Part shown: positions 1,011 to 16,112 of the stretch, in pieces | Numbering within the stretch: position 1 is the stretch's first letter | Layout of the letters: every line of letters starts with the position of its first letter | From: Candidatus Bipolaricaulia bacterium | Lineage (GTDB): Bacteria; Bipolaricaulota; Bipolaricaulia; JBHIAT01 | Assembly: GCA_046758705.1 (NCBI GenBank) | Contig: JBHIAT010000075.1 | Location: 1-16,353 of the forward strand | Direction: 5' to 3' | DNA length: 16,353 nt | Notes under the pieces: model-generated | Told to the model about the DNA's origin: nothing | The model's input: the letters and a program-made list of their open reading frames with translations, nothing else | The model's database searches: none | Translations under genes and position numbers: made by a program

Positions 1011-1646
1011 ATGAAGAAGTTTATAGCCATAGCGGGAAACGTAGGCGTAGGTAAGTCCACTCTGACCGCTCTGCTGAGCGAACGGTTGGGCTGGGAATCC
1101 TTCTATGAAGCAGTCGACGACAACCCTTATCTGGCCGACTTCTACCGGGATATGAAGCGCTGGGGATTTCACTCCCAAATCTTCTTTCTATCGAGACGCC
1201 TGCGTTATCATCGTCAGCTCATTGATCATCCCAGCTCGGTGGTCCAAGATCGCAGCGTCTACGAGGACGCCGAAGTCTTTGCCAAAAATCTCTATCGTCA
1301 AGGACACATGAACAAACGGGATTATCTCAGCTATCGAACGTTGTATGCAGAGCTGGTCGCGCTCCTGCCACCCCCGGATATGGTCGTCTATCTGAAAGCG
1401 TCGCTGGATACGCTCCTTCACCGTATCGCCCTTCGAGGGCGGGAGTTCGAACAAGACATTTCGCCTGAATACTTGGAGCAACTCAATGAGCTCTATGAAG
1501 AATGGATCCGGAGCTTCTCGCTTTGTCCAGTGCTCACCGTTCCGGCCGACGATCTCGACTTTGTGAAGTACATCACTCACATGGAACAGATCACGGCCAA
1601 GATCATGGAGAAACTCAGCGGAACGGAGACCGTGACCTTCGATTGA
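1011..1646 (+). CDS. Deoxynucleoside kinase (dNK family, dAK/dCK/dGK-like)
   Basis: P-loop IAIAGNVGVGKST, NPYL..FY, QIFFL..R, DRSVYED and lid RIALRGREFE. Confidence 0.94.
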   Translation: MKKFIAIAGNVGVGKSTLTALLSERLGWESFYEAVDDNPYLADFYRDMKRWGFHSQIFFLSRRLRYHRQLIDHPSSVVQDRSVYEDAEVFAKNLYRQGHMNKRDYLSYRTLYAELVALLPPPDMVVYLKASLDTLLHRIALRGREFEQDISPEYLEQLNELYEEWIRSFSLCPVLTVPADDLDFVKYITHMEQITAKIMEKLSGTETVTFD

Positions 1647-1664
1647 TCGGAGGTTAAGTGAAGT

Positions 1665-1741
1665 TGGTGGAGTCGACGGGACTCGAACCCGTGACCTCGT
1701 GGATGCCGCCCACGCGCTCTCCCAAACTGAGCTACGACCCC
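1665..1741 (-). tRNA. tRNA-Ala (anticodon GGC), CCA encoded
   Basis: Minus strand reads GGGGTCG TA GCTC AGTTTGGGA GAGC G CGTGG GCGGCAT CCACG AGGTC ACGGG TTCGAGT CCCGT CGACTCC ACCA (77 nt). All four stems pair. The G3:U70 alanine identity pair and A73 are present. Anticodon at 1707-1705. Confidence 0.97.
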
Positions 1742-1751
1742 ATGCGCGTTT

Positions 1752-1780
1752 ATCCTAACAGATCAGTTTCACGAAGTCAA
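1752..1780 (-). promoter_or_regulatory. Sigma70 promoter of tRNA-Ala
   Basis: TTGACT (1780-1775, overlapping the lrp stop codon), 17 nt spacer, TAGGAT (1757-1752) with an extended TGn. 10 nt from the -10 to the mature 5' end. Confidence 0.75.
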
Positions 1781-2253
1781 CCTCCCCAGGTGTTAGCCGT
1801 CACCGGAGCGAGGTTGATATCAGCGTTCTCCTTGACCGCCGACAGGACAACAGAAGTGTTCGTCCCCTCGATCATTGGGTTGCTCAACAACCGCTTGATC
1901 TCCCGGTTCATCATCGCCTCATCGAGGAACTTGCCGATGACCAGAATGTCGAACTCCCCGGTGATCTCGTAGACGTGGGTGAGGTTCTCATCTTGCCTCA
2001 AGATCTCGACGATCTTGGGGATCTCGGTCCCTCGGGCCTTGATCTGAGTGATCGCTGTCAGACTATATCCGAACTGCGTGTAGTCGATGTCAGGCTTAAA
2101 CCCGCGGATCACCCCACGCTCCTCCATCTCCTTGAGGCGATTGCTCACCGTCGTCGTCGAGATGTCCAGCTCCTTGGCGATCTGTCGGAGTGAAGCTCGC
2201 CCATCCTCGCGAAACTTCTGAATAATCTCCAGATCGAGATTCTTGTAGGTCAT
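1777..2253 (-). CDS. lrp: Lrp/AsnC-family transcriptional regulator (haloarchaeal Lrp-like)
   Basis: HTH region LD.EIIQKFREDGRASLRQIAKELDISTTTVSNRLKEMEERGVIRGF and C-terminal RAM domain VYEITGEFDILV...TNTSVVL. Divergent from glnA. Confidence 0.95.
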   Translation of the reverse strand: MTYKNLDLEIIQKFREDGRASLRQIAKELDISTTTVSNRLKEMEERGVIRGFKPDIDYTQFGYSLTAITQIKARGTEIPKIVEILRQDENLTHVYEITGEFDILVIGKFLDEAMMNREIKRLLSNPMIEGTNTSVVLSAVKENADINLAPVTANTWGG

Positions 2254-2259
2254 GTCATT

Positions 2260-2288
2260 AATCTATCAGATCAATCGGGAGGTTTCAA
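2260..2288 (-). promoter_or_regulatory. Sigma70 promoter of lrp, predicted to give a leaderless mRNA
   Basis: TTGAAA (2288-2283), 17 nt spacer, TAGATT (2265-2260) with TGn extension. 6 nt separate the -10 from the ATG at 2253. No SD. Confidence 0.75.
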
Positions 2289-2362
2289 CTGTTCCTCTTG
2301 CCTTGACCTGACTTCGTCCTTCGCAGCTCGGCTCAGTCCTGCCCGCTGAACCGGGTGATCCC

Positions 2363-2392
2363 TTGACGTCATGCCCTCCCCCGCGCTATAAT
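2363..2392 (+). promoter_or_regulatory. Sigma70 promoter of glnA
   Basis: TTGACG (2363-2368), 18 nt spacer, TATAAT (2387-2392). Predicts a leader of about 140 nt. SD AAGGGGG at 2527-2533. Confidence 0.75.
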
Positions 2393-2435
2393 ACCACCGG
2401 TTGCCCCTCACCTGTTGTTTAGACATATAGATATA

Positions 2436-2481
2436 TTATGAACAAATTATTGGGAATCTGTTCATAAATCCGAAATATGAA
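2436..2481. promoter_or_regulatory. AT-rich inverted-repeat array in the glnA leader (candidate operator or RNA hairpin)
   Basis: TTATGAACA (2436-2444) and TGTTCATAA (2459-2467) are perfect 9-bp arms, with inner ATT/AAT. A third TATGAA lies at 2476-2481. Confidence 0.55.
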
Positions 2482-2540
2482 TTCACAATGACGGGAAGCC
2501 ACAGGGCCAAATTAGATAAAATCCAAAAGGGGGTACCTCA

Positions 2541-3911
2541 ATGCCCGAACGAGATGAGCAAATCCAGCAGGTTCTCAAGGAAATCGAAGCGCGGAACGTC
2601 CGGTTCGTCCGGCTACAATTCATCGATATTCTGGGGATTCCGAAGAATGTCGAGATCCCAGCCGACGAACTGGAACAGGTGCTTCAGAATGATCTGGCGT
2701 TCGATGGCTCATCGATTGAGGGGTTCGCCCGGATCTCGGAGTCGGATATGTATCTCCGACCGGATCCCAGTACGTTCGCTATCTACCCGTGGCGGGTAAA
2801 CGCATTGAATCAGGACGGGGATGGTGAGGGACAGCATACGGCGCGGCTCATCTGTGATGTCTACACTCCACAGGGGGAACCGTTCTCCGGGGACCCCCGC
2901 TACGCCCTGAGGCGGGCGATTGCCGAGGCTGCCCAACAAGGTTATGCGATGTATGCGGGACCGGAGCCGGAGTTCTTCCTGCTCCAGAAGGACGAGCACG
3001 GACGACCGACCCTCGACGTCCACGATCGCGGCGGTTACTTTGACCTGATGCCCATCGACCTGGGAGAGGAAACCCGCCAGGATATCGTCCTCGCCCTGGA
3101 GGAGATGGGCTTCAACGTCGAGGCGGCACACCACGAGGTGGCCCCCGGTCAGCACGAGATCGATTTCCGCTATACGAACGCGCTGAGGACCGCTGATAAC
3201 ATCGTGACCTTCAAGTTGGTGACCAAAACGATTGCGCTGTTTCGCGGTCTCCATGCGACGTTCATGCCGAAACCGGTCGCGGGAGAGAACGGCTCGGGCA
3301 TGCACACCCACCTGTCGTTGTTCAAGGATGACATCAACACCTTCTACGATCCGTCCGACGAGTACAACCTATCGGAGGTCGCCTATCAGTTCATGGCCGG
3401 ACTGATCGCGCACATCGATGCGATCACCGCGCTCACCAGCCCGACGATCAATTCCTACAAGCGGCTGGTCCCCGGCTATGAAGCCCCGGTCAACATCTCG
3501 TGGGCGCGGATCAATCGATCGGCCCTGATCCGGATCCCGGCGTCTAATACGCCGGAGGTCTCGACCCGCTTGGAGTTCAGAAGTCCGGACCCGTCAACGA
3601 ACCCCTACCTGGCATTCGCCGCCATCCTGCGCAGCGGCCTGGACGGAATCGCCCGGAAGCTCACCCCACCGTCTCCCGTTGAGGAGGATATCTACGAGAT
3701 GACCGAGGAACAGCGCCGGAAACATCAAATCAGCGTGTTGCCGGCCAGCTTGGATCAGGCCCTCGAGGCGCTCGAAAACGACGAGGTCATCCGAGGCGCC
3801 CTGGGAGAGCATATCTTCGAGCGTTTCCTCGCCGCCAAACACGAGGAGCTCCTCGGATACCGAACCGCCGTGACTCAATGGGAGATCGACCGTTATCTTG
3901 ACTACTATTAA
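2541..3911 (+). CDS. glnA: Glutamine synthetase type I (GSI-alpha-like)
   Basis: FDGSSIEGF..ESDM, GPEPEFF, HHEVAPGQHEI, ATFMPKP..GENGSGMHTH, NSYKRLVPGYEAP, NRSALIRIP and RLEFRSPDP..NPYL. 456 aa with a good SD. Confidence 0.98.
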   Translation: MPERDEQIQQVLKEIEARNVRFVRLQFIDILGIPKNVEIPADELEQVLQNDLAFDGSSIEGFARISESDMYLRPDPSTFAIYPWRVNALNQDGDGEGQHTARLICDVYTPQGEPFSGDPRYALRRAIAEAAQQGYAMYAGPEPEFFLLQKDEHGRPTLDVHDRGGYFDLMPIDLGEETRQDIVLALEEMGFNVEAAHHEVAPGQHEIDFRYTNALRTADNIVTFKLVTKTIALFRGLHATFMPKPVAGENGSGMHTHLSLFKDDINTFYDPSDEYNLSEVAYQFMAGLIAHIDAITALTSPTINSYKRLVPGYEAPVNISWARINRSALIRIPASNTPEVSTRLEFRSPDPSTNPYLAFAAILRSGLDGIARKLTPPSPVEEDIYEMTEEQRRKHQISVLPASLDQALEALENDEVIRGALGEHIFERFLAAKHEELLGYRTAVTQWEIDRYLDYY

Positions 3912-3928
3912 CCTGAGGAGGGATCACC

Positions 3929-3991
3929 TTGAACCAGATCACAGCGCTGGATAGTTTAAAATTGGCCGATGACCAGACACGCAGGATATAA
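3929..3991 (+). CDS. Putative 20-aa small ORF (MNQITALDSLKLADDQTRRI) or 5' remnant of a deleted gene
   Basis: AGGAGG (3916-3921), 7 nt spacer, TTG (3929), open to TAA (3989-3991). Directly after the glnA stop with no terminator hairpin between. Confidence 0.3.
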   Translation: MNQITALDSLKLADDQTRRI

Positions 3992-3992
3992 T
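3962..3992 (+). promoter_or_regulatory. Putative promoter for the ABC/peptidase operon
   Basis: TATAAT at 3987-3992, with TTGGCC at 3962-3967 (19 nt spacer, suboptimal). SD AAAGGAGGG at 4007-4015. Confidence 0.5.
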
Positions 3993-4022
3993 AGATTCAG
4001 AAGCTCAAAGGAGGGAATTGCC

Positions 4023-5552
4023 ATGAACAGGAACGGCAGGATAACCTTCTGGTTCATGGCCATCCTGATTCCCGTGATCCTGATCGGTTTCGGTTTCGGT
4101 TACGGGGCTACCGGTATGGCTGAACCAGTCTATGGGGGGACGCTGTGGGTGGCGATACCCGCAGAACCTCCTGCCTTGGATCCAACAACGCATGCAGGGA
4201 CGGCGATCGTCACCGTCGTTCACAACACGGTCCTCGAAGGATTGGTCAAAGTGAACCAGGACGGTCAGATCGTTCCAGCCATCGCTGACAGTTGGGAGAT
4301 CTCCGCAGACGGCTTGACGTTTACCTTCCATCTGCACCCCGGGGTGAAGTTCCACAACGGGCGAACGCTGACAGCGGCCGATGTGAAGTTCACGATCGAA
4401 CGAGCCCTCGATCCTGATTCCGGCTTCACCCAACCTCGGTACTTTACAGGTGTCTCGGCGGTGGAGGTCGTCGACGATCACACAGTCAGAATCAAATTGG
4501 ATCAGGTGAACGCCAACCTGTTGTATAATTTGACCTTAGCGGAATCGGTTATCGTACCCCAAGAGACGGTCGATACGCTGAGCAGCGCTCCAATCGGCAC
4601 CGGACCGTTCAAGTTCGTAAGCTGGGTGCCGGGAAGCCATATCACGCTGGAACAGTTCGCAGACTACTACCGTCCCGGTCTTCCCTATCTCGATGAAGTC
4701 AGCTTCCGATTCATCCCTGAGCCCAGCACGGCAATGGCCGCGTTGCAGACGGGAGCGGTGGACGTTGTGACTTACCTGACACCCGAGAACGTGTTCCAAG
4801 TGCAAACGGAGCCTCTGTTGAAACTGATATACGCCCCTACAATCGGGAACATCACCCTTATGGCGATCAACAACGCCCGAGAGCCGTTCACCGATCTGCG
4901 CGTGCGGCAAGCGATCAACTACGCCATCGATCAGGAAGAGGTCATCGAAGGGGCTCAGTTCGGATTCGCGGCTCGCATCGGCTCCCATATGAGTCCGGCC
5001 AATCCCTTCTACATCGATCTGACCGATCGATACGAATACGATCCTGAGAAGGCCAAGGCGCTGTTGGCCGAGGCGGGTTATCCCAACGGCTTTAAGGCCA
5101 CTCTCAAACTGCCCCAGCCCTTTGAGTATGCGATCCGTTCGGGCGAGATCATCGCCGATCAGCTCGCTAGAGTGGGTATCGATCTCAACCTCCAAATCAT
5201 CGAGTGGGGAACCTGGCTTGACCAAGTGTACCAAGGGTACGACTATGACCTCACCATCGTCAACCAAAGCCGACCCTATGGGATAAGCAGCTACTACCCC
5301 AGACCGAGCTACTACTTCCGATACGATAACCCTCAAGTTCAACAGATGGTGAGTGAACTCATCGCAACGGCCGATGTGACCAGACAGGCGGAGATCTATG
5401 CGCAGCTCCAACGGACCGTGGCCGACGATGCGGTGAACGTCTTCCTGTTCAACCTGCCGGCCCTGATTGGGCTGCATGACAACGTTCAAAACTGGTGGAC
5501 CAAAATGCCGGCCGTGGCGGCCGATATCACGGAGGTATACAAAACCCGGTAG
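4023..5552 (+). CDS. ABC transporter substrate-binding protein, family 5 (DppA/OppA-like)
   Basis: Start moved to ATG 4023 behind a strong SD. N-terminal hydrophobic signal without a lipobox Cys. YGGTL, LDP, A.SWEIS.DG.TFTFHL..GVKFHNG, PIGTGPFK and DLRVRQAINYAID. Confidence 0.94.
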   Translation: MNRNGRITFWFMAILIPVILIGFGFGYGATGMAEPVYGGTLWVAIPAEPPALDPTTHAGTAIVTVVHNTVLEGLVKVNQDGQIVPAIADSWEISADGLTFTFHLHPGVKFHNGRTLTAADVKFTIERALDPDSGFTQPRYFTGVSAVEVVDDHTVRIKLDQVNANLLYNLTLAESVIVPQETVDTLSSAPIGTGPFKFVSWVPGSHITLEQFADYYRPGLPYLDEVSFRFIPEPSTAMAALQTGAVDVVTYLTPENVFQVQTEPLLKLIYAPTIGNITLMAINNAREPFTDLRVRQAINYAIDQEEVIEGAQFGFAARIGSHMSPANPFYIDLTDRYEYDPEKAKALLAEAGYPNGFKATLKLPQPFEYAIRSGEIIADQLARVGIDLNLQIIEWGTWLDQVYQGYDYDLTIVNQSRPYGISSYYPRPSYYFRYDNPQVQQMVSELIATADVTRQAEIYAQLQRTVADDAVNVFLFNLPALIGLHDNVQNWWTKMPAVAADITEVYKTR

Positions 5553-5574
5553 ACGAGGACGAACATCATCAACC

Positions 5575-5594
5575 CGCCAACGTGAGCGTAGGCG
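5575..5594 (+). other. Intergenic stem-loop after the binding-protein gene (possible mRNA-stabilising element)
   Basis: CGCC-A-ACG-TGAG-CGT-A-GGCG forms a 7-bp stem with one mismatch and has no U-tract. Confidence 0.3.
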
Positions 5595-5625
5595 ATCAGG
5601 ACCGGTCCCCCGGGAGTTTTCATAG

Positions 5626-6570
5626 ATGGTGGATTACTTCATCAGGCGTCTATTTACCTTGGTGGTGGTCCTGCTTCTCATCTCGATCATCACCTTCGTC
5701 ATCCTCAACGCCATCCCGGGGGACCCCGCACTGATCATCTTAGGCGTCGAAGCCGATCCGGATCTTCTGGACCGGTTGCGCGAACAACTCGGGCTCAACC
5801 GCCCGTTACATCTCCAGTATTGGTACTGGATCAGCGGGGTGGTCAAGGGAGATCTTGGCAGCTCTATTCACTATAGTGTTCCTATCTCATCCTTGATCGT
5901 CAGTCGGCTGTCCGTGACTCTGCCTTTGGCAGCATTGGCCACGGTTTTGGCCGTGATGCTATCCATTCCTTTGGGGATCTACGCGGCGACTCACCAAAAT
6001 CGGATCGGAGACTTTTCCAGTATGGTACTCTCTCAACTGGGTCTTTCTGTTCCTTCGTTCTGGATAGGCATTCTGCTGATCATTCTGTTCGCCGTCCATC
6101 TGGGATGGTTCCCAGCGGGAGGGTTCACCTATTGGTCCGAGAATGCGGTGGCCGCATTGAAATCGCTCCTGCTACCCGCTTTGGCGCTGGGTGTCGCACA
6201 AGCGGCCGTGCTGACCCGGATCACGCGCTCATCGATGCTCGAAGTCCTGCATGAGGATTACATCCAGACCGCCAGAAGCAAAGGACTGGCGGAACGGGTG
6301 GTTATCTATAAACATGGCCTCAAAAACGCGTTCATCTCGATCCTGACGATCCTGGGTTTGCAGATCGGGGCGCTGTTGACCGGCAGCATCATCATCGAGA
6401 ACGTCTTCTCGCTTCCGGGGTTGGGAAGACTGGTTCTCGGTTCGATCGGCCAGCGTGATCTGCCAGTCGTGCAAGGAATCGTGGTCTTCTTTGCCGCGAT
6501 GATCATCCTGATCAACTTTATCGTCGATATCCTGTATGGATACCTGAATCCGAGAATTCGATATGAATAA
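5626..6570 (+). CDS. ABC transporter permease (DppB/OppB-like)
   Basis: PGDPA, LGLNRPL..QY..W, GDLG.S, EAA loop RSSMLEVLHEDYIQTARSKGL, IENVFSLPGLGRL and C-terminal LNPRIR. Confidence 0.95.
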   Translation: MVDYFIRRLFTLVVVLLLISIITFVILNAIPGDPALIILGVEADPDLLDRLREQLGLNRPLHLQYWYWISGVVKGDLGSSIHYSVPISSLIVSRLSVTLPLAALATVLAVMLSIPLGIYAATHQNRIGDFSSMVLSQLGLSVPSFWIGILLIILFAVHLGWFPAGGFTYWSENAVAALKSLLLPALALGVAQAAVLTRITRSSMLEVLHEDYIQTARSKGLAERVVIYKHGLKNAFISILTILGLQIGALLTGSIIIENVFSLPGLGRLVLGSIGQRDLPVVQGIVVFFAAMIILINFIVDILYGYLNPRIRYE

Positions 6571-7412
6571 TGAAATTATCTAATTTATCTCAATACTTTA
6601 AGGACAAAAACTTGGCGGTCGGCTCCTTCCTCATCAGTATCATTCTTTTTGTTGCTATCTTTAGCCTGATCTACACCCCTTATAATCCAACTAAGATGAA
6701 CATTCCTAGCCGTTTACAGGAGCCGAGCTCTGCCTATTGGCTCGGGACCGACCAATACGGTCGCGATACACTCAGCCGGATCATGGCCGGCGCGAGAACG
6801 ACGATGACCGTCGGAATCGTATCGGTGGGGCTCGGTCTGTCATTCGGTGTGCTCATCGGCGCTTGGGCCGGGTACTTTGGGGGCTGGCTGGATGAGGTCG
6901 TGATGCGGATCATGGACGCGATCTATGGCTTCCCCGTGCTGCTCTCCGCCATTTTGATCACTTCGATCTTAGAACCGGGGATCAAAAACAGCATGATCGC
7001 CATCGGTGTCTTCAACATCCCCGTCTTCGCCAGACTGACCCGGGGAAACTTTCTCGCGCTTAAGGAGAACGACTTCATCCTGGCGGCGCACGCCCTCGGG
7101 GCCGGTGCCACAACCATCATCCGACGTCATATCTTCAGAAACACCCTGTCTCCGATCATCGTCCAGGCGACCGTCAGTTTCGCGGTCGCGATCCTGGCCG
7201 AAGCGGGGTTAAGCTATCTGGGGCTTGGAACCCAACCCCCCGATCCGAGCTGGGGTCGCATGCTGCGGGAGTCGCAGAGCTTCATCCGGCTCTCCCCGTG
7301 GCCGGCGATCTTCCCCGGCTTGGCCATCGCCTGGGCGGTGTTGGGCTTCAATCTGCTGGGTGATGGACTGCGAGATGTGTTCGACCCGAAAACGGTCAGG
7401 ATCAGACGATAG
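6570..7412 (+). CDS. ABC transporter permease (DppC/OppC-like)
   Basis: WLGTDQYGRD.LSR, FILAAHALGA, EAGLSYLGLG..PP.PSWG and FNLLGDGLRD..DP. TAATG stop/start overlap with the upstream permease. Confidence 0.95.
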   Translation: MKLSNLSQYFKDKNLAVGSFLISIILFVAIFSLIYTPYNPTKMNIPSRLQEPSSAYWLGTDQYGRDTLSRIMAGARTTMTVGIVSVGLGLSFGVLIGAWAGYFGGWLDEVVMRIMDAIYGFPVLLSAILITSILEPGIKNSMIAIGVFNIPVFARLTRGNFLALKENDFILAAHALGAGATTIIRRHIFRNTLSPIIVQATVSFAVAILAEAGLSYLGLGTQPPDPSWGRMLRESQSFIRLSPWPAIFPGLAIAWAVLGFNLLGDGLRDVFDPKTVRIRR

Positions 7413-7413
7413 C

Positions 7414-8703
7414 ATGATGAAAAAGCAGCGGGAGACGGTGGACGTGGATCGATATATCGACGGTGACGAGCTGGTCGATCTGACCCAGGATCTGATTCGG
7501 ATCCCATCTGTCTACCGCTCACAGACCCGACACAACGAGGAGCAGGTCGCCCGGTTTGTGGCCGAGTGGCTAACCGGGATAGGCGTTGAACCAACGTTCG
7601 AGCAGGTCACCCCCAGCCGACCCAACGTCATCGCCGTTCTGGAGGGGAGCGAGTCCGGACCCTGCCTGATGTTCGAGTGCCATACCGACGTGGTCACCGA
7701 GGGCGATCGGTCGGAATGGACCCACGGCCCGTTCGACGCCGAGGTGGCCGATGGCCGCATCTACGGCCGTGGGGCCTGCGATACGAAGGGAAACCTGGCA
7801 GCGGCACTGATCGCGGTGAAGGCGATCGTAGTATCGAAATTGGGTTTCAATGGTCGGATCCTTCTGGGTATCCTGGTTGACGAGGAAGGGATGATGGCCG
7901 GAGTCAAAGATTTCATCCGTCGAGGTTGGGCCCGTGACGTGGACGCCGCTATCATCTGTGAGCCCGAAGACAACCAACTCTGCATCGCGCAAAAGGGAGC
8001 ACTGCGCGCCGAGATCAACGCTTGTGGTAAGATGAGCCATGGGGCGATGCCCCTCTCCGGCCTCAACCCCAACCCGCCGATCGCCAAAATCATCGCCGAA
8101 CTCTCCAGATTGGAACGGGCGGAGATCGAGACTCACGGCCGGGATCGATGGTTAGGCTTCCCAAGCCTCACTCCAACGGTCCTCCAGGCACCGGTGGCTG
8201 GAGAGCCACAGCTCAATGTGATGCCGTCCCACGGCCGAGTCTGGTTAGACATCCGCACCATCCCCGGCCAATCCCACGATGCCCTCAAGGCGGAGCTAAA
8301 CAAGATCGTCGATCGGGTCGAAGCCGAGGTCAACGGAGACCTGAGGACAGGCTTCCAGGGGAAGATTCGCCGAGAGCTTTACGGCGACGTGCCTGAGGGG
8401 TTGAAGCTCTCGATCGATCTTGACATATTAGAAGAGCGGGTGTGGACCCAGACGGACAGAGATGAGTCGATCGTGAGCGCTGTGGATGAGGCGATCCGTC
8501 AGGTGACCGGAAAGGAACCCGTCTATAACGGGGTTCCGGGGGCAACGGACGGCACCTTCCTCTGGGAAGCGGGGATTCCGATCGTGACCACCGGCGCCGG
8601 CGACCGGTCCGTCCCACACCAGGTCGACGAATGGGTGGAGATCGACCAGCTGGTGGAGACGGCGAAGATCTATGCGCTGAGTGCGATCAAATTCTTGCGA
8701 TAG
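7414..8703 (+). CDS. M20 family metallopeptidase/deacylase (ArgE/DapE-like)
   Basis: Start moved to ATG 7414 (or 7417), just after the permease stop. Metal and catalytic motifs HTDVV, GRGACDTKG, DEEG, CEP, HG(AMP), GATDG and H(QVDE). Confidence 0.92.
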   Translation: MMKKQRETVDVDRYIDGDELVDLTQDLIRIPSVYRSQTRHNEEQVARFVAEWLTGIGVEPTFEQVTPSRPNVIAVLEGSESGPCLMFECHTDVVTEGDRSEWTHGPFDAEVADGRIYGRGACDTKGNLAAALIAVKAIVVSKLGFNGRILLGILVDEEGMMAGVKDFIRRGWARDVDAAIICEPEDNQLCIAQKGALRAEINACGKMSHGAMPLSGLNPNPPIAKIIAELSRLERAEIETHGRDRWLGFPSLTPTVLQAPVAGEPQLNVMPSHGRVWLDIRTIPGQSHDALKAELNKIVDRVEAEVNGDLRTGFQGKIRRELYGDVPEGLKLSIDLDILEERVWTQTDRDESIVSAVDEAIRQVTGKEPVYNGVPGATDGTFLWEAGIPIVTTGAGDRSVPHQVDEWVEIDQLVETAKIYALSAIKFLR

Positions 8704-8728
8704 TTCTTCTAAAGACAGGGGGCAAATG

Positions 8729-9709
8729 ATGACCGGAAAAATCACCGACGTTGCCGGGATCGCGGTGGGTCATGTGAGCGACTTCGAAGCGTTGACCGGG
8801 TGTACGGCCCTGCTCTTCGAAGCCGGAGCCGTCGCAGGGGTCTTCGTTCCCGGAATGGCCAGTACGACGAGAGGGCTTGATACGCTGAGGCTCACTCATC
8901 TGAACGAGACGATCCATGGGATCCTGCTCTCCGGAGGCAGCAGCTTCGGTCTGAACGCCACCGGCGGGGTGATGAGATATCTGGAGGAGCGGGGCATCGG
9001 CTTCGATGTTCGTTGCACCGTCGTCCCGCTTGTCCCGTCGGCTATCCTCTTCGACCTCGGGCTCGGTGATTGCAGCGTGCGACCCGGTGAACAGATGGGG
9101 TATCTCGCCTGCACCCAAGCGACGGTGAGCGAGGTGGCAGAGGGAAGCATCGGGGTCGGCACCGGGGCGACCGTGGGCAACCTCTACGGGCTGAAGCGGG
9201 CGATGAAGGGCGGGGTAGGCACCGCCAGTGTCGAAGGCCCTTACGGACCGGTAGGGGCGCTCGCTGCTGTCAACGCCTTCGGAGATATCGTCGATCGGCG
9301 AACCGGAAAGATCCTCGCGGGTCTGCGCGATAAACAGGATGGAACGGAGCTGATCGGAACCGCATCACAGTTGAAACAGGGTATCGCTCCCAGAGACTTC
9401 GCTTTCCAGAACACGACGTTGGGTGTGGTGGCGACCGAGGTGAACCTATCGAAGGCCCAGGCCAGCCGGATCGCGATGGTGGCAAACGGTGCGCTGGTCA
9501 AAACGATCTCCCCGCACCATGCTACGTTCGACGGCGACGTGATATTTGCAGTCTCCACCGGCAGACGAGCGGAAGAAGCTGACGTGAACGTCCTCAGCCT
9601 GTTGGCCGAAGCGGCGTTGGCGGAGGCGATCGAGCGGGCCGTGGTGAAGGCGCAGGGCCTTGGGGGGGTTCCGGCTTATCGGGATCTCTTCGGTAAAGGA
9701 AAACCGTAG
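8729..9709 (+). CDS. DmpA/P1-family (S58-like) Ntn-hydrolase / peptidase
   Basis: ITDVAGI.VGH, TGCT, LSGGSSFGL, VPLVPSAILFDL, EGSIG.GTGA, KGG.G, VNAFGD, putative autoproteolysis site N|TTLGVVAT, and FDGD.IF. SD AGGGGG (8717-8722) fits ATG 8729; 8726 is an alternative start. Confidence 0.9.
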   Translation: MTGKITDVAGIAVGHVSDFEALTGCTALLFEAGAVAGVFVPGMASTTRGLDTLRLTHLNETIHGILLSGGSSFGLNATGGVMRYLEERGIGFDVRCTVVPLVPSAILFDLGLGDCSVRPGEQMGYLACTQATVSEVAEGSIGVGTGATVGNLYGLKRAMKGGVGTASVEGPYGPVGALAAVNAFGDIVDRRTGKILAGLRDKQDGTELIGTASQLKQGIAPRDFAFQNTTLGVVATEVNLSKAQASRIAMVANGALVKTISPHHATFDGDVIFAVSTGRRAEEADVNVLSLLAEAALAEAIERAVVKAQGLGGVPAYRDLFGKGKP

Positions 9710-11917
9710 ATGAAGACGTTGCGCGGTACCTTAGAACGGATCGTCTATGAGAACGAAGAAACCGGCTACACGGTGGCACGGCTCAGCTCTCCCCAACACC
9801 GTACCGGCCTGATCACCGTGGTGGGAAACCTCGCCTCCGCCACCCCGGGCGAGCACCTGCTACTCGAAGGGTGGTGGACCAACCATCCCAAATACGGTCG
9901 TCAATTTAAGATCGAAGCGTATCGTACCGTGGCCCCAACGACCGTAGCGGGAATCAAGAAGTACCTGGGCTCAGGGCTCATCAACGGAATCGGCCCGGTT
10001 ATGGCGGACCGGATCACCAACCACTTCGGACTGCACACCTTAGAGGTGATCGAGACGGATCCCAAGGCACTGAAACAGGTGCACGGGATCGGTCCCAAGC
10101 GGATCCGACTCATCATCGCCGCCTGGAACGAACAGAAGGAGATCCAGGAGGTCATGCTCTTCCTCAAAACCTACGATGTCAGCACCACCTACGCCATCAA
10201 GATCTATAAGACCTACGGACAGGATGCGATCTCCATCATTCAGGAGAACCCCTATCGACTCGCCGAGGACATCTTCGGCATCGGCTTTAAGACGGCCGAT
10301 CAGATCGCCGCCCGGCTGGGGTTGGCCAAGGATGCTCCCGGTCGGCTGAGGGCCGGGATCGAGTATCTCCTGTACCGGGCCTCCGATGAGGGACACGTCT
10401 ACCTCCCCCGATCCCAGTTGATGGACCGGTGTATGGAAATGCTAGAGGTGGAGGTGGACAAACTGCAACCGGCTCTGGACACACTTGTGCAAGCAGACAA
10501 ACTGGTCGTAGACGAGGAAACGGAAGCCGGGGCCAAGGCCGTCTATCTGACCCCCTTCTACTATGCCGAGGTGGGGGTGGCCAACCGAATGAGACGGATC
10601 TCGTCCACTACGTTGAATCTTCATATCGATCGGGATCGCGGTCACAGCCCTCTGTTTCTTCCCGACCTGGAACGGAGGGTGCGGCTCGAGTACTCCCCGA
10701 AGCAGCAGGAGGCGATCGCAAACGCGCTGACCTGCAAAGTGCTGATCCTCACCGGCGGCCCCGGCACCGGCAAGACGACGACCGTCCGGGGCATCATCCA
10801 GCTCTTCGACGGGTTGGGTCTTAAGATCGCGTTGGCCTCCCCTACAGGAAGAGCGGCCAAGCGACTGAGCCAAGCCACCGGTCGAGATGCCAAGACGATC
10901 CACCGCCTCCTGGGATACGCTCCCCACAGTGGCTTTGCTGTAAACGATCGTAATCCGCTCAACGTCGACGTCATCATCATCGATGAGGCATCGATGATCG
11001 ACCTGACGTTGATGAATAACTTGCTCAAGGCGATCCGTCCCACGGCCACCCTGATCTTGATCGGAGATGTAGACCAACTTCCTTCGGTCGGAGCCGGAAA
11101 CGTGCTCCGAGACCTCATCGACTCAAGGACAGTGGAGGTCATCGAGTTGAAGGAAATCTTCCGCCAGGCACGCCACAGCCAGATTATCACCAATGCCCAT
11201 CGCATCAACGACGGAAAATTCCCCGACCTCACGGAGACACCCCATGGGGATTTCCGCTTTGTTGAGGAGGAAGATCCCCAACGGGTCGCCGTCCGCATCG
11301 AGGCGTGGGTCACCGAACGACTCCCGAATGACTATGGGTATGACCCCTTCGCTGACATCCAGGTCCTCTCCCCCATGTACCGCGGGGCTGCCGGGGCGGA
11401 TCGCCTGAACCAGCAGCTCCAGGAGCAGTTGAACCCCGATTCCGGGGAGGGGAAGCGCATCGAGCTTCCCTACGTCGACAAAAAATTTCGTCTCGGGGAC
11501 AAGGTGATGCAGATCCGGAACAACTATGAGAAGGAGGTCTTCAACGGCGATATCGGCAGGGTCGTCGCCGTCGACCGCGCCCAACAACAGGTACAGGTTC
11601 ACTACCCCGATCGCGGTCGGATCAGCTATGCGCTGACCGACCTGGACGAGTTGGTCTTGGCCTATGCGATCACGATTCACAAGAGTCAGGGCAACGAATA
11701 TCCTGCCGTGGTCTTTCCGCTCCTGACCCAACACTACCTCATGCTTCAGAGGAACCTGCTCTACACCGCGGTCACCCGCGCCCAACAGTTAGTGGTGCTC
11801 GTTGGCAGCAAGAAGGCGGTGGGAATCGCGGTCAACAACGATAAGCCGGTGAGACGATACTCCAAACTGAAAGACCGATTGAGGGATAATGAGGTTCGTT
11901 ACCTCAATCACAAGTAA
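9710..11917 (+). CDS. recD2: ATP-dependent RecD2-like SF1B DNA helicase
   Basis: Long N-terminal extension (HPKYGRQF, YLGSGLI.GIG, HhH repeats, ENPYRL..I.GIGFK.AD). Helicase motifs GGPGTGKTT, PTGRAAKR, IIDEASM, GDVDQLPSVG, YAITIHKSQG and LLYTAVTRA. Confidence 0.96.
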   Translation: MKTLRGTLERIVYENEETGYTVARLSSPQHRTGLITVVGNLASATPGEHLLLEGWWTNHPKYGRQFKIEAYRTVAPTTVAGIKKYLGSGLINGIGPVMADRITNHFGLHTLEVIETDPKALKQVHGIGPKRIRLIIAAWNEQKEIQEVMLFLKTYDVSTTYAIKIYKTYGQDAISIIQENPYRLAEDIFGIGFKTADQIAARLGLAKDAPGRLRAGIEYLLYRASDEGHVYLPRSQLMDRCMEMLEVEVDKLQPALDTLVQADKLVVDEETEAGAKAVYLTPFYYAEVGVANRMRRISSTTLNLHIDRDRGHSPLFLPDLERRVRLEYSPKQQEAIANALTCKVLILTGGPGTGKTTTVRGIIQLFDGLGLKIALASPTGRAAKRLSQATGRDAKTIHRLLGYAPHSGFAVNDRNPLNVDVIIIDEASMIDLTLMNNLLKAIRPTATLILIGDVDQLPSVGAGNVLRDLIDSRTVEVIELKEIFRQARHSQIITNAHRINDGKFPDLTETPHGDFRFVEEEDPQRVAVRIEAWVTERLPNDYGYDPFADIQVLSPMYRGAAGADRLNQQLQEQLNPDSGEGKRIELPYVDKKFRLGDKVMQIRNNYEKEVFNGDIGRVVAVDRAQQQVQVHYPDRGRISYALTDLDELVLAYAITIHKSQGNEYPAVVFPLLTQHYLMLQRNLLYTAVTRAQQLVVLVGSKKAVGIAVNNDKPVRRYSKLKDRLRDNEVRYLNHK

Positions 11918-13949
11918 AGAAGAAGGTAGCTCCCTCGTCCGGCACAGCCTCCGCCCATACTCGGCCGCCGTGGCGGTGAATGATGCGCTGCACACTGGCC
12001 AGACCGATACCCGCCCCCTCAAACTCTTCTGGCCGGTGCAGCCGTTGGAACGGCCTGAACAGTTTGTCGGCGAACGCCATATCAAACCCTACGCCGTTGT
12101 CCTGGACAAAGAAGACGGTCTGTCCATTCTGAGCCATGCTTCCGATGCGGATGACCGCCGGAGTCCGCCCGCGCGTGAACTTAAGCGCATTGGAGATCAA
12201 GTTGGTCAGTACGATCTTGATCAGCTGAGGGTCACCCACAATCTTCAGTCCGTCAGCTACCTGAAAGTCCACTTCGTGGTCTGCGGTCATCTCAGCCATT
12301 TCTGTGTTAACTTCCCATGCCATGACGGTGAGGTTGAGAAGTCGGCGCTTTATCTCGTGCTCGCCCAACTGGGACAGGGTGAGCAGGGAATCGATGAGTC
12401 GGAACATCTTCTGACTGCCGGCCTGGATCCGTTCCAGGTAGTGCCGGCCCTGCTCGTCCAAAGTGTCGATAAAGTCCTCCAAGAGCGCTGTGGAGAAGCT
12501 TTCGATGGCACGCAGCGGCGCGCGCAGGTCGTGCGAGACCGCGTAGCTGAACCATTCGAGCTCACGGTTGGCCACCTCCAGCTGCGCGGTCCGTTCCCGT
12601 ACCTGTCGCTCTAATTCCTCAGCGGTGAGCTTGACCTGCTCGTACAGTCTCGCGTTCTTGACAGCCAGGGTGATCTCATCTCGGATTTCCTCAATCAACC
12701 TCAAGTCTTCCTCGTCGAAGGCGTTCTCCTCGGTCTTGCTGTTGATGTTGAAGAACCCTATCATCTCCCCGTTGATGTGCACTGGGATAAGGATCAACGA
12801 TTTTGGATATCCCAGCTCTTTGAACTTCTCCACTATCTCAGGACCATAACACCGCTTGTTCAGCAACTCAAGCTCCTCATCCTCGAAGATCGTCAGCTCA
12901 TTGAACAATTCCTGGATAGAGGGTGTACGATCGGCGGGGATTTTGATCTGTTTCAATAACTCCAGGTTCCAACCACGAGCCGTCCGGAACTCGAAAACGT
13001 TCTCCTGTTCGTTCAGCAGAAGGAACGAGCCGCTGTCAGCGTTGGGGATCATGTCGATCGCTTGCTCCAGGATAGCGCTCATCAACTCCTCTAGATGGGA
13101 GGTCTCATTCATCACCCTCATGAACCGGTTGACACTCCTGATCCGATCCTCCGCCCGCTTGCGCTCGGTGATGTCCTGAGACACCCCCATGACTCCCACA
13201 AATTCACCGTTCGCATCTCGAAGAACAGAAGCGGCGAGAAAAGCGGGAAATACCTCATCATTCTTCCGTTTGTTTACGATTTCGCCAGTGAATCGACCAG
13301 TTCTCCGGACTGTTTCATGCACCTTCAACCCTTCCGCTGGATCGGCATAAAGTATGTTGATGGGCTGGTCGAGGAGTTCCGCTTTACTGTAGCCGAATGT
13401 TTTCTGAGCTGCCTGGTTGAACTCCACGATTCTGCGGTCCTGGTCTACGGAGATGATCATATCCAGAGAACTATCAATCAGGCTCTGGGCGTATTCCCGG
13501 GCTGCCTTTAACTCCTCCTCCGCCTGCTTACGGGCTTGGATCTCCTCCCAGTGCTCCAGTGTCCGTTCAGCCATGTGGGGAAGGTCGGCTATCGACTCAG
13601 AGGACTTGATGACATAATCCAGAGCGCCGCGCTTTATGGCCTCTACCGCCACTTCTTCCGAGCCGTGGCTGGTCAACACGACCACGGGGAACGTTTGTTG
13701 GCCGTTATCTTTGTTGTTGGCTCCGAGCAGATCCAGGCCGGCGCCGTCCGGCAGTAAATAGTCCAGCAGTATCAGATCCGGGGGTTGGTGGGTGGCCAGC
13801 CGCTCCCGGGCGTCTGCCAGCGTCTCAGCGACATCGACATCCCACCTGCCAGGACTGGAGGATTTGAATGCTCGCTTGATCAGATCCACGTGCGTCGCCT
13901 CGTCCTCTACGAGCAGGATCTGTTTTCGCTCCTTTTCTCCCCTACTCAT
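11904..13949 (-). CDS. Hybrid signal protein REC-PAS-GAF-HisKA-HATPase
   Basis: Start moved to ATG 13949 (MSRGEKERKQILLVEDE), overlapping the upstream stop. Receiver LLDYLLPD..LTS..YVIK, PAS DMIISVD..IVEFNQAA..FGY, GAF (GSFLLL..LILIPV..IGFFNI), H-box SHDLRAPL, NLISNALKF, DNGVGF and GIGLA. Confidence 0.93.
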   Translation of the reverse strand: MSRGEKERKQILLVEDEATHVDLIKRAFKSSSPGRWDVDVAETLADARERLATHQPPDLILLDYLLPDGAGLDLLGANNKDNGQQTFPVVVLTSHGSEEVAVEAIKRGALDYVIKSSESIADLPHMAERTLEHWEEIQARKQAEEELKAAREYAQSLIDSSLDMIISVDQDRRIVEFNQAAQKTFGYSKAELLDQPINILYADPAEGLKVHETVRRTGRFTGEIVNKRKNDEVFPAFLAASVLRDANGEFVGVMGVSQDITERKRAEDRIRSVNRFMRVMNETSHLEELMSAILEQAIDMIPNADSGSFLLLNEQENVFEFRTARGWNLELLKQIKIPADRTPSIQELFNELTIFEDEELELLNKRCYGPEIVEKFKELGYPKSLILIPVHINGEMIGFFNINSKTEENAFDEEDLRLIEEIRDEITLAVKNARLYEQVKLTAEELERQVRERTAQLEVANRELEWFSYAVSHDLRAPLRAIESFSTALLEDFIDTLDEQGRHYLERIQAGSQKMFRLIDSLLTLSQLGEHEIKRRLLNLTVMAWEVNTEMAEMTADHEVDFQVADGLKIVGDPQLIKIVLTNLISNALKFTRGRTPAVIRIGSMAQNGQTVFFVQDNGVGFDMAFADKLFRPFQRLHRPEEFEGAGIGLASVQRIIHRHGGRVWAEAVPDEGATFFFTCD

Positions 13950-14700
13950 CGGCTCTCTTCCGCTTGGGCAGGCTGACCCAGAACGTGCTCCCGCGCCCCG
14001 GCGCAGACTCGACCCAGATGCGGCCTCCGTGCACCTCCACCACCCGCTTGACAATGGCCAACCCGACCCCAGTACCCTCACCGCCTGTGCCCGTCCGTTG
14101 GAACAGTTCGAAGACCTGGTCGTGATAGGCCGGATCGATGCCCACCCCGTTGTCCCGGACGTAGAAACGCACCTCTGTCTCTGTCCCCGTCGGTTCGCAG
14201 CCGACCTCGATCTCCGGCTTCGGCTGGTCACCCATGTATTTGATCGCGTTTGAGATGAGGTTTTCGAACACCTCAGCCATCCGGGAGCGATAGACGGACA
14301 GGGTCGGCAGGTCCGGAGCGACGGTGACCGCGATCTTGCGTTCCTTGATCTCGGTGGCGAACGTCTCCAAAACCTCGTTCACCAACACGGTGAAGTCTAC
14401 CGGCTCGGGCAGGTTGGTCACCCGGCCGAGCCGGCTCAGTTCCAGCAACTCTTCGATCAGCTGCGCCATGCGGTGAGTGGCTTGGGTAATCTGCTCCATA
14501 TCCTTGCTGATCTGTGCTTCATCCCCCTGCTGGATATCCCGCTGTAGATGTCCTAGATAGCCTTGGATGGAGACGAGCGGGGCCTTCAGGTCGTGGGAGA
14601 CGGTGTAGATGAATCGCTCCAGCTCGGCAGCCAACCGATCGCGCTCCGCCTTGACCTGCTGAAGCTGGTGAGACAGTTCCTTCTTCGACTGGGTCTCCAT
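13942..14700 (-). CDS. Histidine kinase core (HisKA + HATPase) without a sensor domain
   Basis: H-box TVSHDLKAPL, N-box NLISNAIKY, DNGVGI, VFELF and GTGVGLAI. Most likely start is ATG 14700, with GGTGA 8 nt upstream; alternatives are 14709 and 14727. Confidence 0.9.
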   Translation of the reverse strand: METQSKKELSHQLQQVKAERDRLAAELERFIYTVSHDLKAPLVSIQGYLGHLQRDIQQGDEAQISKDMEQITQATHRMAQLIEELLELSRLGRVTNLPEPVDFTVLVNEVLETFATEIKERKIAVTVAPDLPTLSVYRSRMAEVFENLISNAIKYMGDQPKPEIEVGCEPTGTETEVRFYVRDNGVGIDPAYHDQVFELFQRTGTGGEGTGVGLAIVKRVVEVHGGRIWVESAPGRGSTFWVSLPKRKRADE

Positions 14701-14746
14701 CACCGACATCACCGTACCATGACACACTCATAGAAGCCAGTTTGGT

Positions 14747-14752
14747 ATTATA
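14747..14752 (-). promoter_or_regulatory. Possible -10 element upstream of the sensor-less kinase
   Basis: Perfect TATAAT in a short, otherwise GC-richer intergenic region. No convincing -35. Confidence 0.4.
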
Positions 14753-14800
14753 CCCACAGATCGGTCATTCGAGAGATCTCCCTGCATCCTCTCCACTATC

Positions 14801-15712
14801 TCAAGCTGACGGCTGGTTGCTGATAGCTAACCGCTTGCGTTCTTTCTTGCCCTGATACATTTGCTGATCGGCTCGTTCCAAAGCGGGTTCCAATGTACTC
14901 TCCTTGGCAGACCACTCGGAGACCCCCGCGCTGAACGTCACCCCAACGTCCAAATCCAAATGCTCCTGACTCCATTGGCTAAACTGCCCTCTCAATCGGT
15001 CGATGGCCCTGGCAGCCTGCTCACTTCCCGTTTCCGGCATGATGATCAGAAACTCATCTCCCCCGAAGCGCACCACCGTATCACTCGTGCGGACATGCTG
15101 ATACAAGAAGCCGCCGATGCTCCGCAGGACTTCATCGCCTTTGAGATGGCCGTAGCGGGTGTTCACCCAATGAAAATTGTCAATATCCAGCAAGCAGATC
15201 GAGAGACGATGGCCATAGCGTTGGCAGCGCTCAATCTCTTTCTGGATCGTTTCATCGAGAAAACGCCGGTTGTACGTTCCCGTCAACGCATCCTTGAGGG
15301 CCATCTCCTTAAGCTGGGCCAAGAGTTGCTGCCGCTCCAGAGCGTTTCTGATGGTCACCAGCAGAAACTCGATATTCAACGGCTTCTCCAGATAAGAGAA
15401 TGCGCCCCGGTGGACCGCGCCGATCGCCATCTCTTGCGAGCCGTAGCTGGTTATCATCACCACTTCCATCTCGGGAGCCAGCCGCTTCGCCTGATCCAGA
15501 AACTCCAAGCCGGAGGTGTCTGGGAGCTTCAGATCCACCAGGGCCAGGTTGATCTCATCCTGACGCAGCGCCTCAAGTCCCTCACGGCCGGTGAGTGCCG
15601 CGCACGTCCGGTAGCCGTGCGCCTCCAGGATGTCTTTCAGGGTCTCGCATATCCCCGGCTCGTCATCAACGATCAAGATCCCCGGTCTTTCCGGGCTTAA
15701 ACGTATCTCCAT
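14801..15712 (-). CDS. Response-regulated diguanylate cyclase (REC-GGDEF, WspR-like architecture)
   Basis: Receiver ILIVDDE..LVDLKLPD..MITS..LEKP, then D.LTG.YNRR, DIDNF..VN..YGH..GDEVL, I-site RTSD and intact RFGGDEF. SD AGGAGG abuts ATG 15721, so ATG 15712 is the preferred start. Confidence 0.93.
   Translation of the reverse strand: MEIRLSPERPGILIVDDEPGICETLKDILEAHGYRTCAALTGREGLEALRQDEINLALVDLKLPDTSGLEFLDQAKRLAPEMEVVMITSYGSQEMAIGAVHRGAFSYLEKPLNIEFLLVTIRNALERQQLLAQLKEMALKDALTGTYNRRFLDETIQKEIERCQRYGHRLSICLLDIDNFHWVNTRYGHLKGDEVLRSIGGFLYQHVRTSDTVVRFGGDEFLIIMPETGSEQAARAIDRLRGQFSQWSQEHLDLDVGVTFSAGVSEWSAKESTLEPALERADQQMYQGKKERKRLAISNQPSA
14802..14829 (-). repeat. Four tandem 7-nt units (YAGCnnn) at the 3' end of the GGDEF gene
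   Basis: Minus strand reads TAGCTAT CAGCAAC CAGCCGT CAGCTTG and encodes the tail AISNQPSA*. Confidence 0.5.
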
Positions 15713-16112
15713 GATCTCCATCCCTCCTGTTGGTGATCTTCGTCTTGAGATCCTGAAGGAAGGTCATTAACCACCTGATATCGATGGGCTTGGTGAGAAC
15801 CTTTAAAACACCTTCCCGTTTGGCTTCTTCTATGAGCTCATGGAACGTATAAGCGGTCATCATGACCACCACCGCTTTGGGCACAACCTGCTTGATCGCT
15901 TTGAAGGCTTCGACCCCGTTCATGCCCGACATCTTGATGTCTAACAGGATGCAATCGAACGCCTTGGCGCTCACCTGGGAGATGGCTTGTTCACCGCTAT
16001 GCGCGATAGCCACGCTATAGCCCTGTCCTCCTAGGATGTCGGATAACGTCTCGGTCATGGCTTCATCATCGTCGACGACCAACACGTTGAGATCGGTATC
16101 GGTGTTCATCAC
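15666..16112 (-). CDS. Stand-alone receiver-domain response regulator
   Basis: VLVVDDD, ILLDIKM, MMTAY and TKP. SD GGAGG lies 6 nt before GTG 16112; ATG 16109 is an alternative start. Confidence 0.92.
   Translation of the reverse strand: MMNTDTDLNVLVVDDDEAMTETLSDILGGQGYSVAIAHSGEQAISQVSAKAFDCILLDIKMSGMNGVEAFKAIKQVVPKAVVVMMTAYTFHELIEEAKREGVLKVLTKPIDIRWLMTFLQDLKTKITNRRDGDHGDTFKPGKTGDLDR

Follow-up and report, generated by a model that had tools for sequence, protein, structure and literature searches.

The best described relatives of the system considered here come from archaea. According to the part of PMC8229911 available to us, haloarchaeal lrp, which encodes a regulator of the Lrp/AsnC family, adjoins the glutamine synthetase (GS) gene glnA in six genera. 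In Halobacterium (Hbt.) salinarum, glnA changes by -1.5 and +2.1 in lrp deletion and overexpression strains, respectively, and the dpp peptide-transport genes change too, as stated in the accessible text of PMC2894021. Sa-Lrp of Sulfolobus acidocaldarius is described, in the sections of PMC3584215 at hand, as glutamine-responsive and as binding the control regions of glnA, gltB and gdhA, and an excerpt of PMC1784095 assigns the control of gltBDF to Escherichia coli Lrp. Here, we analyse a divergent lrp-glnA pair from a bacterium. It lies on a stretch of 16,353 nt (JBHIAT010000075.1; hereafter, the window), which is the complete contig C75 of a metagenome-assembled genome (MAG) of the class Bipolaricaulia (3.70 Mb, 319 contigs, 93.9% complete, 4.7% contaminated). 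The host setting is a hydrothermal vent, the four DNA runs that hold the stretch all belonging to one hydrothermal-vent study.

The list of open reading frames (ORFs) and their translations place the two genes back to back across a 287-bp spacer:

1777..2253, minus strand: lrp, encoding a 158-aa Lrp/AsnC-family regulator with an N-terminal winged helix-turn-helix (HTH) and a C-terminal RAM/AsnC ligand domain
2254..2540: divergent control region, 287 bp, G+C 47% versus 57% for the genome
2541..3911, plus strand: glnA, encoding a 456-aa type I-alpha glutamine synthetase (GSI-alpha)

We lean, with modest confidence, towards the view that this Lrp is an amino-acid-sensing member of the haloarchaeal-type subfamily, which autoregulates and controls a native GSI-alpha glnA through the shared divergent spacer. 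Judging from the trees described below, the two domains of life have in common the type of regulator and its association with glnA rather than a gene pair passed between them, and the two glnA genes are of separate origin. That a haloarchaeal Lrp-family gene is linked to glnA and affects it was already known. New are an orthologous clade in bacteria, its conserved association with a native bacterial glnA under predicted sigma-70 promoters, and the setting of this association in an uncultured class of which only 2 of 41 genomes yielded PII. No earlier account of such an lrp-glnA pair in a bacterium was found in the literature.

Origins of the regulator and the enzyme

By its domain build, the 158-aa protein is assigned to the Lrp/AsnC (feast/famine) regulators. 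Residues 6-50 form an AsnC-type winged HTH (HTH_24, PF13412, 48.9 bits, cut-off 21.9; HTH_AsnC, PF13404, 36.8 bits, cut-off 27), and residues 70-138 form the RAM domain (AsnC_trans_reg, PF01037, 37.1 bits, cut-off 25). The best NCBIfam model is NF041396 (TranRegLrp_Halo), with 179.2 bits under a cut-off of 190 (178.6 on the genome scan), followed by LysM with only 71 bits; on NF041396, haloarchaeal representatives reach 198-258 bits and other bacterial representatives 140-151. Among PDB sequences, the best match is 8q90, named "AsnC family transcriptional regulator" and beginning MTYENLD (153 bits, E 4e-44, residues 1-146), for which no paper was found in the literature. The window Lrp itself begins MTYKNLD and contains DGRASLRQIAKELDISTTTVSNRL, VYEITGEFDILVIGKF and NTSVVLSAVKEN. 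Both the bacterial and the haloarchaeal clade have TTVSN[RH]L in the recognition helix and VYE.TG, IGKF and NTS.VL in the RAM domain, while more distant Lrps carry VYD in place of VYE. A single-sequence AlphaFold model of the protein was poor (predicted local distance difference test 57).

The likeness has its limits. Compared with 60 haloarchaeal Lrps, the window Lrp shows 43-50% identity, and with 94 bacterial ones, Bipolaricaulota, Fraserbacteria and Gemmatimonadota among them, it reaches 51-64%; its charge (24 D/E to 20 K/R) differs from that of five glnA-linked haloarchaeal Lrps (29-32 to 10-11). Measured against the NF041396 equivalog, it shares the adjacency to glnA but falls under the score cut-off, sits outside the haloarchaeal clade and does not have the acidic composition. 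The only match to it in the host genome is the window gene itself, which is also the sole full-length HTH+RAM Lrp found there. Three RAM domains without an HTH (C54:6615-6800, C72:11910-12140 and C66:8087-8242) comprise two short stand-alone ORFs of 89 and 105 aa and one stretch inside a 497-aa open frame.

In a large protein collection, 426 relatives of the window Lrp were recovered, the top ones 58-68% identical and, where named, from Fraserbacteria, Gemmatimonadota, Bipolaricaulota/Acetothermia and one Caldarchaeum bin. A survey of lrp loci, with one genome scanned per species, yielded 80 loci, all bacterial by label: 43 from Gemmatimonadota, 22 from Bipolaricaulota, 6 from Fraserbacteria, 4 from "Thermotogota", 1 each from Verrucomicrobiota and Acidobacteriota, and 3 unlabelled. 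An exhaustive search of representatives gave only seven clusters at E <= 1e-30; one of them (P0123) reaches 258 bits with NF041396, and proteins closely related to it bear the name Lrp, from Natronococcus, Natrinema and others. Among 40 relatives, all from the same class only, lrp orthologues occur in families f2 (1/1), f4 (7/7), f6 (9/9) and f7 (2/2) and were not found in f3 (0/9) or f5 (0/10).

The Lrp tree (IQ-TREE with posterior mean site frequencies, 73 rows, 154 columns) was built after the exclusion of long or compositionally odd rows (out_P0208, out_P0235, rep_P0155, rep_P0174, rep_P0158 and rep_P0133), and its bootstrap was not fully settled. It supports a haloarchaeal clade (100/99), a bacterial clade (94/77) and the union of both (97/77). 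The window Lrp falls in the bacterial clade, as sister to Gemmatimonadota proteins (98/89). Approximately unbiased (AU) tests did not reject a window Lrp sister to the haloarchaeal clade (p 0.31), and monophyly of all Bipolaricaulia Lrps, the window protein included, was likewise not rejected (p 0.33); beyond the two clades, their union and the Gemmatimonadota sister position, the 154 columns resolve little. On the tree, the window Lrp is thus best described as a member of a wide bacterial clade sister to the haloarchaeal Lrps, not as a stray archaeal gene.

GlnA has a different history. The protein carries Gln-synt_N and Gln-synt_C (Pfam) and scores 549.4 bits on TIGR00653 (cut-off 429). Its 15 best PDB sequences, one of them named Methanothermococcus, score 505-559 bits, the following ones at most 307; we take these 15 to be GSI-alpha enzymes, including those of Bacillus subtilis and methanogens. 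By these matches, GlnA is an ordinary type I-alpha glutamine synthetase. The closest proteins, 64-72% identical, are from Bipolaricaulota where labelled, and the next relatives (58-61%) come from Bacillota (Moorella, Carboxydothermus), Thermotoga, WOR-3 and a Hadarchaeota bin; haloarchaeal GlnAs from lrp-linked contigs are 54-57% identical. In a tree of 68 rows (quick search, LG+G4), the window GlnA sits inside a host-class clade holding families f1, f2, f3, f4, f6 and f8 (Shimodaira-Hasegawa-like approximate likelihood-ratio test 99), while six haloarchaeal GlnAs sit elsewhere, with Hadarchaeota (100). Constraining the window GlnA to group with haloarchaeal GlnAs lowers the log-likelihood by 140 units (AU p 4e-69), and a constraint uniting all lrp-linked GlnAs lowers it by 1027 (AU p 2e-130). 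GlnA being native to the class, no lrp-glnA cassette was transferred, and the transfer of a two-gene module between domains is ruled out by the tree and both AU tests.

A preliminary description of this DNA, made from its letters alone, had read the locus as a haloarchaeal-type divergon in a bacterial genome, and most of what it observed has held. The divergent arrangement (1777-2253, minus, and 2541-3911, plus, around 2254-2540) and every quoted piece of the protein are in the translations; the hand count of 24 D/E and 20 K/R, from which it judged the Lrp not strongly acidic, is exact. The likeness to haloarchaeal Lrp that it pointed to is borne out by the best model, the best PDB sequence and the sister position of the clades at 97/77, and its bacterial context by tRNA-Ala, RecD2, GGDEF and two-component genes and by nearest GlnA relatives labelled Bipolaricaulota. 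The proposed sharing or transfer of a nitrogen module between domains survives in its first half, the regulator subfamily being shared, and fails in its second, GlnA having not moved (AU p 4e-69). The separate trees that it proposed split in the same way: Lrp belongs to a bacterial clade sister to the haloarchaeal one, and GlnA to a Bipolaricaulia clade. Nor does Lrp look like a lone import, given the breadth of its bacterial clade (80 loci, mostly without an adjoining glnA).

Conservation of the pair and organization of the spacer

The divergent lrp-glnA arrangement recurs in three Bipolaricaulia families: f1 (the host), f2 (1/1) and f6 (8/8 orthologue loci). Across these families, protein identity is just 53-64% for Lrp and 59-65% for GlnA. 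The outer flanks vary among the lineages carrying the pair; therefore, only lrp-glnA itself has been kept. Among the 80 bacterial loci, a GS gene is divergent from lrp in nine, seven labelled Bipolaricaulota and two "Thermotogota", and the Lrp and GlnA of the latter two are identical to proteins of class relatives. On these comparisons, the pairing is old within the class Bipolaricaulia, although, as a whole, the adjacency is conserved but patchy. In haloarchaea, glnA is divergent from lrp in 12 of 62 metagenome contigs, or in 8 of the 34 with at least 1.5 kb upstream, across spacers of 131-151 nt. Both the haloarchaeal precedent, with lrp beside glnA and raising its expression in Hbt. salinarum (PMC2894021 and PMC8229911, as far as their available portions go), and the synteny survey proposed in the preliminary description have thereby found support, the adjacency being kept in host relatives of f2 and f6.

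Other arrangements of lrp were met as well. In f4 and Fraserbacteria-labelled genomes (L009, L028, L030 and L039, at about 4450-7140 in each), lrp is followed by a Crp/Fnr-family regulator gene and then by a PAS histidine kinase gene of about 600 aa, so that lrp-crp-PAS histidine kinase is a conserved three-gene regulatory cluster. In an Acetothermia MAG (L027:2335-7429), which supplies one of the nine bacterial loci with a divergent GS gene, an f4-type cluster of this kind is divergent from another GS paralogue (485 aa, 40% identical to the window GlnA). Extra lrp copies are present on haloarchaeal megaplasmids (22 plasmid records). None of the three copies inspected is next to glnA; two are near orc1/cdc6, one of these also near parA (e.g., L114:1-4462 and L115:4001-5716). 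The plasmid copies were accordingly of no use as synteny evidence.

A promoter scan of 1600-4100 returned four promoter-like sites against 1.1 expected, all of them pattern matches only. Three of these lie in the spacer, together with an inverted repeat (numbers between promoter elements are nucleotides):

2363..2392, plus strand: candidate glnA promoter, TTGACG-18-TATAAT, 11/12 matches, with a predicted 5' untranslated region of about 140 nt
2260..2288, minus strand: candidate lrp promoter, TTGAAA-17-TAGATT with a TG extension, 9/12 matches
2464-2435, minus strand: second promoter-like site for lrp, TGAACA-18-CATAAT, 9/12 matches
2436..2467: AT-rich inverted repeat, candidate Lrp operator, TTATGAACAAATT / AATCTGTTCATAA, with 13-nt arms, 12/13 complementary, and a 6-nt gap

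These promoter-like sites would correspond to the sigma-70-type promoters announced in the preliminary description, and elements of this kind are also preserved in f6. There, the spacers carry sigma-70 promoters of both genes, back to back and conserved, TTGACA-17-TATAAT among them, and the haloarchaeal spacers share a box, TTTACGAA(T)ATCCA, near lrp, together with TATA-like elements. This difference supports the notion that the pair runs on bacterial promoters here. The extended -10 element of the candidate lrp promoter (TGATAGATT) ends 6 nt ahead of the ATG, and no Shine-Dalgarno sequence was found before lrp in the minus-strand reading of 2254-2290; together, these two features suggest that lrp mRNA is leaderless or nearly so. 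The f6 lrp orthologues, unlike the window gene, have GGAGG upstream.

As for operators, when the spacer was shuffled by dinucleotides, 5 of 1000 shuffles contained an inverted repeat of equal or better quality than that at 2436-2467; for the AT-rich core of the spacer, 13 of 1000 did. The core pattern of the repeat, ATGAACA-N14-TGTTCAT, is present only once in the 3.7-Mb genome, and the second of the lrp promoter-like sites falls on the repeat arms. We regard this repeat as the best candidate for an Lrp operator. Motif searches gave no evidence of a regulon. A 10-mer at 2419, shared with the f6 glnA promoter spacer, has one other genome site, at a start codon, and the amtB upstream region is unlike the glnA spacer (alignment score 20, null median 22). 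A further candidate, an RNA element in the glnA leader, was rejected: Rfam gave no match apart from the tRNA and a chance snoRNA hit, and folding of 2399-2550 gave a z-score of -1.45, a stability equalled by 18 of 200 shuffles.

Proposed control of glnA and rival explanations

Control of glnA in bacteria is classically built on PII plus NtrBC, GlnR/TnrA, NtcA or AmtR. The host genome gave no match to PII (PF00543), to the DNA-binding domain of sigma-54 (PF04552) or to NrpR (PF01995), and none above the cut-off to NtcA. The two genomes with PII among the 41 of the class (the host and 40 relatives) both belong to f5 and score about 36-37 bits, versus PII in 13 of 14 control genomes. A GlnR/TnrA-type box (TGTNA-N7-TNACA) was absent from the spacer at up to one mismatch, and the window as a whole holds 3 matches versus 3.0 expected; such a box was therefore discarded as a control element of glnA. 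With PII, sigma-54/NtrC, NrpR and NtcA not having turned up, we see in Lrp the likeliest candidate for transcriptional regulation of glnA.

Elsewhere in the host genome, the minus strand of C30:3290-6657 carries amtB, next to it a 180-aa ORF and then a second GS paralogue, which shares about 38-46% identity with the window GlnA. The position beside amtB is the usual place of glnK; for the 180-aa ORF, there was no Pfam match and nothing usable in a protein atlas. A promoter-like TTGACA-17-TATAAT site lies upstream of amtB. Three closely similar metal-sensor genes of the MerR family, MerR/ZntR/CadR-like (C126:7679-8224, C176:623-1051 and C41:20404-20838) score about 97-107 bits, below the equivalog cut-offs.

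The mechanism that we propose may be outlined as follows. Lrp, as a dimer or higher oligomer, would bind AT-rich operator DNA in the spacer, with the 2436-2467 repeat as the best candidate site. This binding would repress or tune its own promoter and would also modulate the sigma-70-dependent transcription of glnA, perhaps together with that of the peptide-uptake and peptidase genes behind it. The RAM domain would bind an amino acid, most likely glutamine or another signal of nitrogen status. We infer the DNA binding, the ligand and the sign of regulation from the family and from the Lrp of Hbt. salinarum and Sa-Lrp.

Several points weigh against this mechanism. In Hbt. salinarum, glnA responds to lrp by a factor of about two (PMC2894021), and in Haloferax (Hfx.) mediterranei, Lrp levels are unresponsive to the nitrogen source, with the authors favouring a general stress role (abstract of PMC8229911). 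The repeat, at about +37 to +68 of the predicted glnA promoter, is oddly placed for an activator. Spacer alignments reveal no operator motif common to the window, f2, f6 and haloarchaea, only conserved core promoters and lineage-specific boxes. In seven f4 and two f7 loci, glnA is not beside lrp, and f4, whose GlnA is the closest (64-69%), encodes it on a different contig from lrp; across the bacterial survey, 71 of the 80 lrp loci have no neighbouring glnA, including all 43 of Gemmatimonadota. The three best of 11 MerR_1 matches in the host look like metal sensors, which leaves room for a GlnR, and in a MAG that is 94% complete, missing genes are not proof of absence. Finally, the read-archive look-up listed no RNA runs holding the stretch.

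The most serious rival is that Lrp acts as a global feast/famine or stress regulator, for which glnA is at most one target among many, so that the adjacency says little about its main role. We consider this possible, if rather unlikely. As the only full-length Lrp found in the genome, the protein could equally well be a global or a dedicated regulator, and the many loci without an adjoining glnA point the same way. So do the archaeal precedents, since the Lrp of Hbt. salinarum affects many genes (PMC2894021 and PMC2995911, in the parts available) and that of Hfx. mediterranei is read as a general stress regulator (abstract of PMC8229911). However, the adjacency has been kept in three families of the class despite changing flanks, as well as in haloarchaea, and the lrp of the Acetothermia MAG stands beside another GS paralogue. 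Moreover, a global role would still allow direct control of glnA.

One might also suppose that lrp and glnA are chance neighbours with independent promoters and no cross-regulation. Each gene does have its own promoter-like site, no operator sequence is common across lineages, and f4 and Gemmatimonadota do not have the pair side by side. Yet chance alone sits poorly with a pair that f1, f2 and f6 all carry, at protein identities of 53-65% and with changing flanks, that is found in 12 of 62 haloarchaeal contigs, and for which Hbt. salinarum offers an experimental link between Lrp and glnA (PMC2894021, available portion); we hold neutral adjacency to be improbable. A recent import of a haloarchaeal lrp-glnA cassette is scarcely credible, since the MTYKNLD start, the matching motifs and the unrejected sister position of Lrp (p 0.31) are set against a GlnA constraint that refutes it for glnA (p 4e-69), a GlnA closer to Bipolaricaulota (64-72%) than to haloarchaea (54-57%), an Lrp closer to bacterial (51-64%) than to haloarchaeal proteins (43-50%) with a charge of 24:20 versus 29-32:10-11, and an unrejected monophyly of the Bipolaricaulia Lrps (p 0.33).

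Beyond the proposed control of a native glnA by the adjacent Lrp, it is tempting to speculate that, in a class without PII signalling, this Lrp clade serves as the principal transcription factor for nitrogen status, directly sensing glutamine or a related metabolite and controlling glnA. The pairing would then have been kept or re-formed in both domains, on TBP/TFB in one and sigma-70 in the other, each lineage with its own glnA. We put this forward as a tentative extension that has some chance of being right. Were the control of glnA by Lrp true, the locus would be a bacterial example of Lrp-based glnA control and a natural test of one type of regulator on two transcription machineries. It would also offer a simple system, one protein and one 287-bp spacer, for the ligand and operator that are still undefined for haloarchaeal Lrp. 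A caution follows as well: a shared gene pair need not mean a transferred cassette, the regulator here being common and the enzyme gene not.

The pair is flanked by the following genes:

1665..1741, minus strand: tRNA-Ala (GGC), 35 nt downstream of the lrp stop codon
3969..9709, plus strand: peptide/oligopeptide binding protein (SBP_bac_5), two ABC permeases, M20 peptidase and S58 (DmpA-type) peptidase (Pfam)

On the tRNA-Ala side, the stop codon of lrp overlaps with a promoter-like sequence at 1780-1752, TTGACT-17-TAGGAT with TG. The pattern scan of 1600-4100 found no terminator-like site behind glnA, and, because of this, the genes at 3969-9709 may be co-transcribed with it. The same-strand run is not conserved in f6 relatives, in which the next gene is on the opposite strand. 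No ATPase genes stand beside the two permeases in 3912-9709, and RecD2 comes after the S58/DmpA peptidase. The stretch 3912-9709 could be a nitrogen-acquisition operon, recalling the dpp genes affected by Lrp in Hbt. salinarum. By Pfam, the gene content of the window is bacterial, with tRNA-Ala, a peptide ABC transporter, peptidases, RecD2, histidine kinases and a GGDEF response regulator. At 11904-16112, a series of minus-strand signalling genes encodes a hybrid kinase of the build receiver-PAS-GAF-HisKA-HATPase, another histidine kinase, a protein joining a receiver to GGDEF, and a single-domain receiver. One ORF of this series, of 775 aa, is probably listed with a start too far upstream, because its first domain starts at residue 105.

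Comparison with known systems

The Lrp and AsnC of E. coli belong to the same superfamily as the window Lrp and share the general mode of oligomeric, amino-acid-responsive, autoregulating proteins. However, the window Lrp scores just 45.5 and 48.8 bits on their models, versus cut-offs of 233 and 227, and falls in another clade. In E. coli, glnA is under NtrBC/sigma-54 and PII; sigma-54 and PII, unlike there, were not found in the host genome. The GlnR/TnrA regulators of Bacillota are functional analogues, controlling a GSI-alpha glnA from sigma-70 promoters, and the window GlnA is 59-61% identical to the GlnAs of Moorella and Carboxydothermus. Unlike the window Lrp, though, GlnR and TnrA are of the MerR family.

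A precedent for an amino-acid-sensing Lrp that controls glutamine synthetase is offered by Sa-Lrp and the glutamine-binding Grp/ST1022 (2e7w, 2efn). Sa-Lrp is nevertheless distant (ST1022-type chains score about 60 bits) and, according to the available sections of PMC3584215, is not encoded beside glnA, unlike the window Lrp.

The nearest comparison remains that with the haloarchaeal Lrps (Hbt. salinarum OE3923F, Hfx. mediterranei HFX_RS01210, NF041396 and 8q90). They differ from the window protein in sequence (43-50% identity, 179 bits versus the cut-off of 190) and in composition, the window Lrp not being acidic. They also differ in the setting of the gene, since the window Lrp would work in a bacterial host with sigma-70-type promoters versus TATA box and B recognition elements, next to a glnA of separate origin. 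Nevertheless, hidden Markov models, PDB matches and the sister position of the clades place them all in the same subfamily. They share size, the two-domain build, a near-identical recognition helix and RAM motifs, and a gene that lies next to glnA, divergently in many species.

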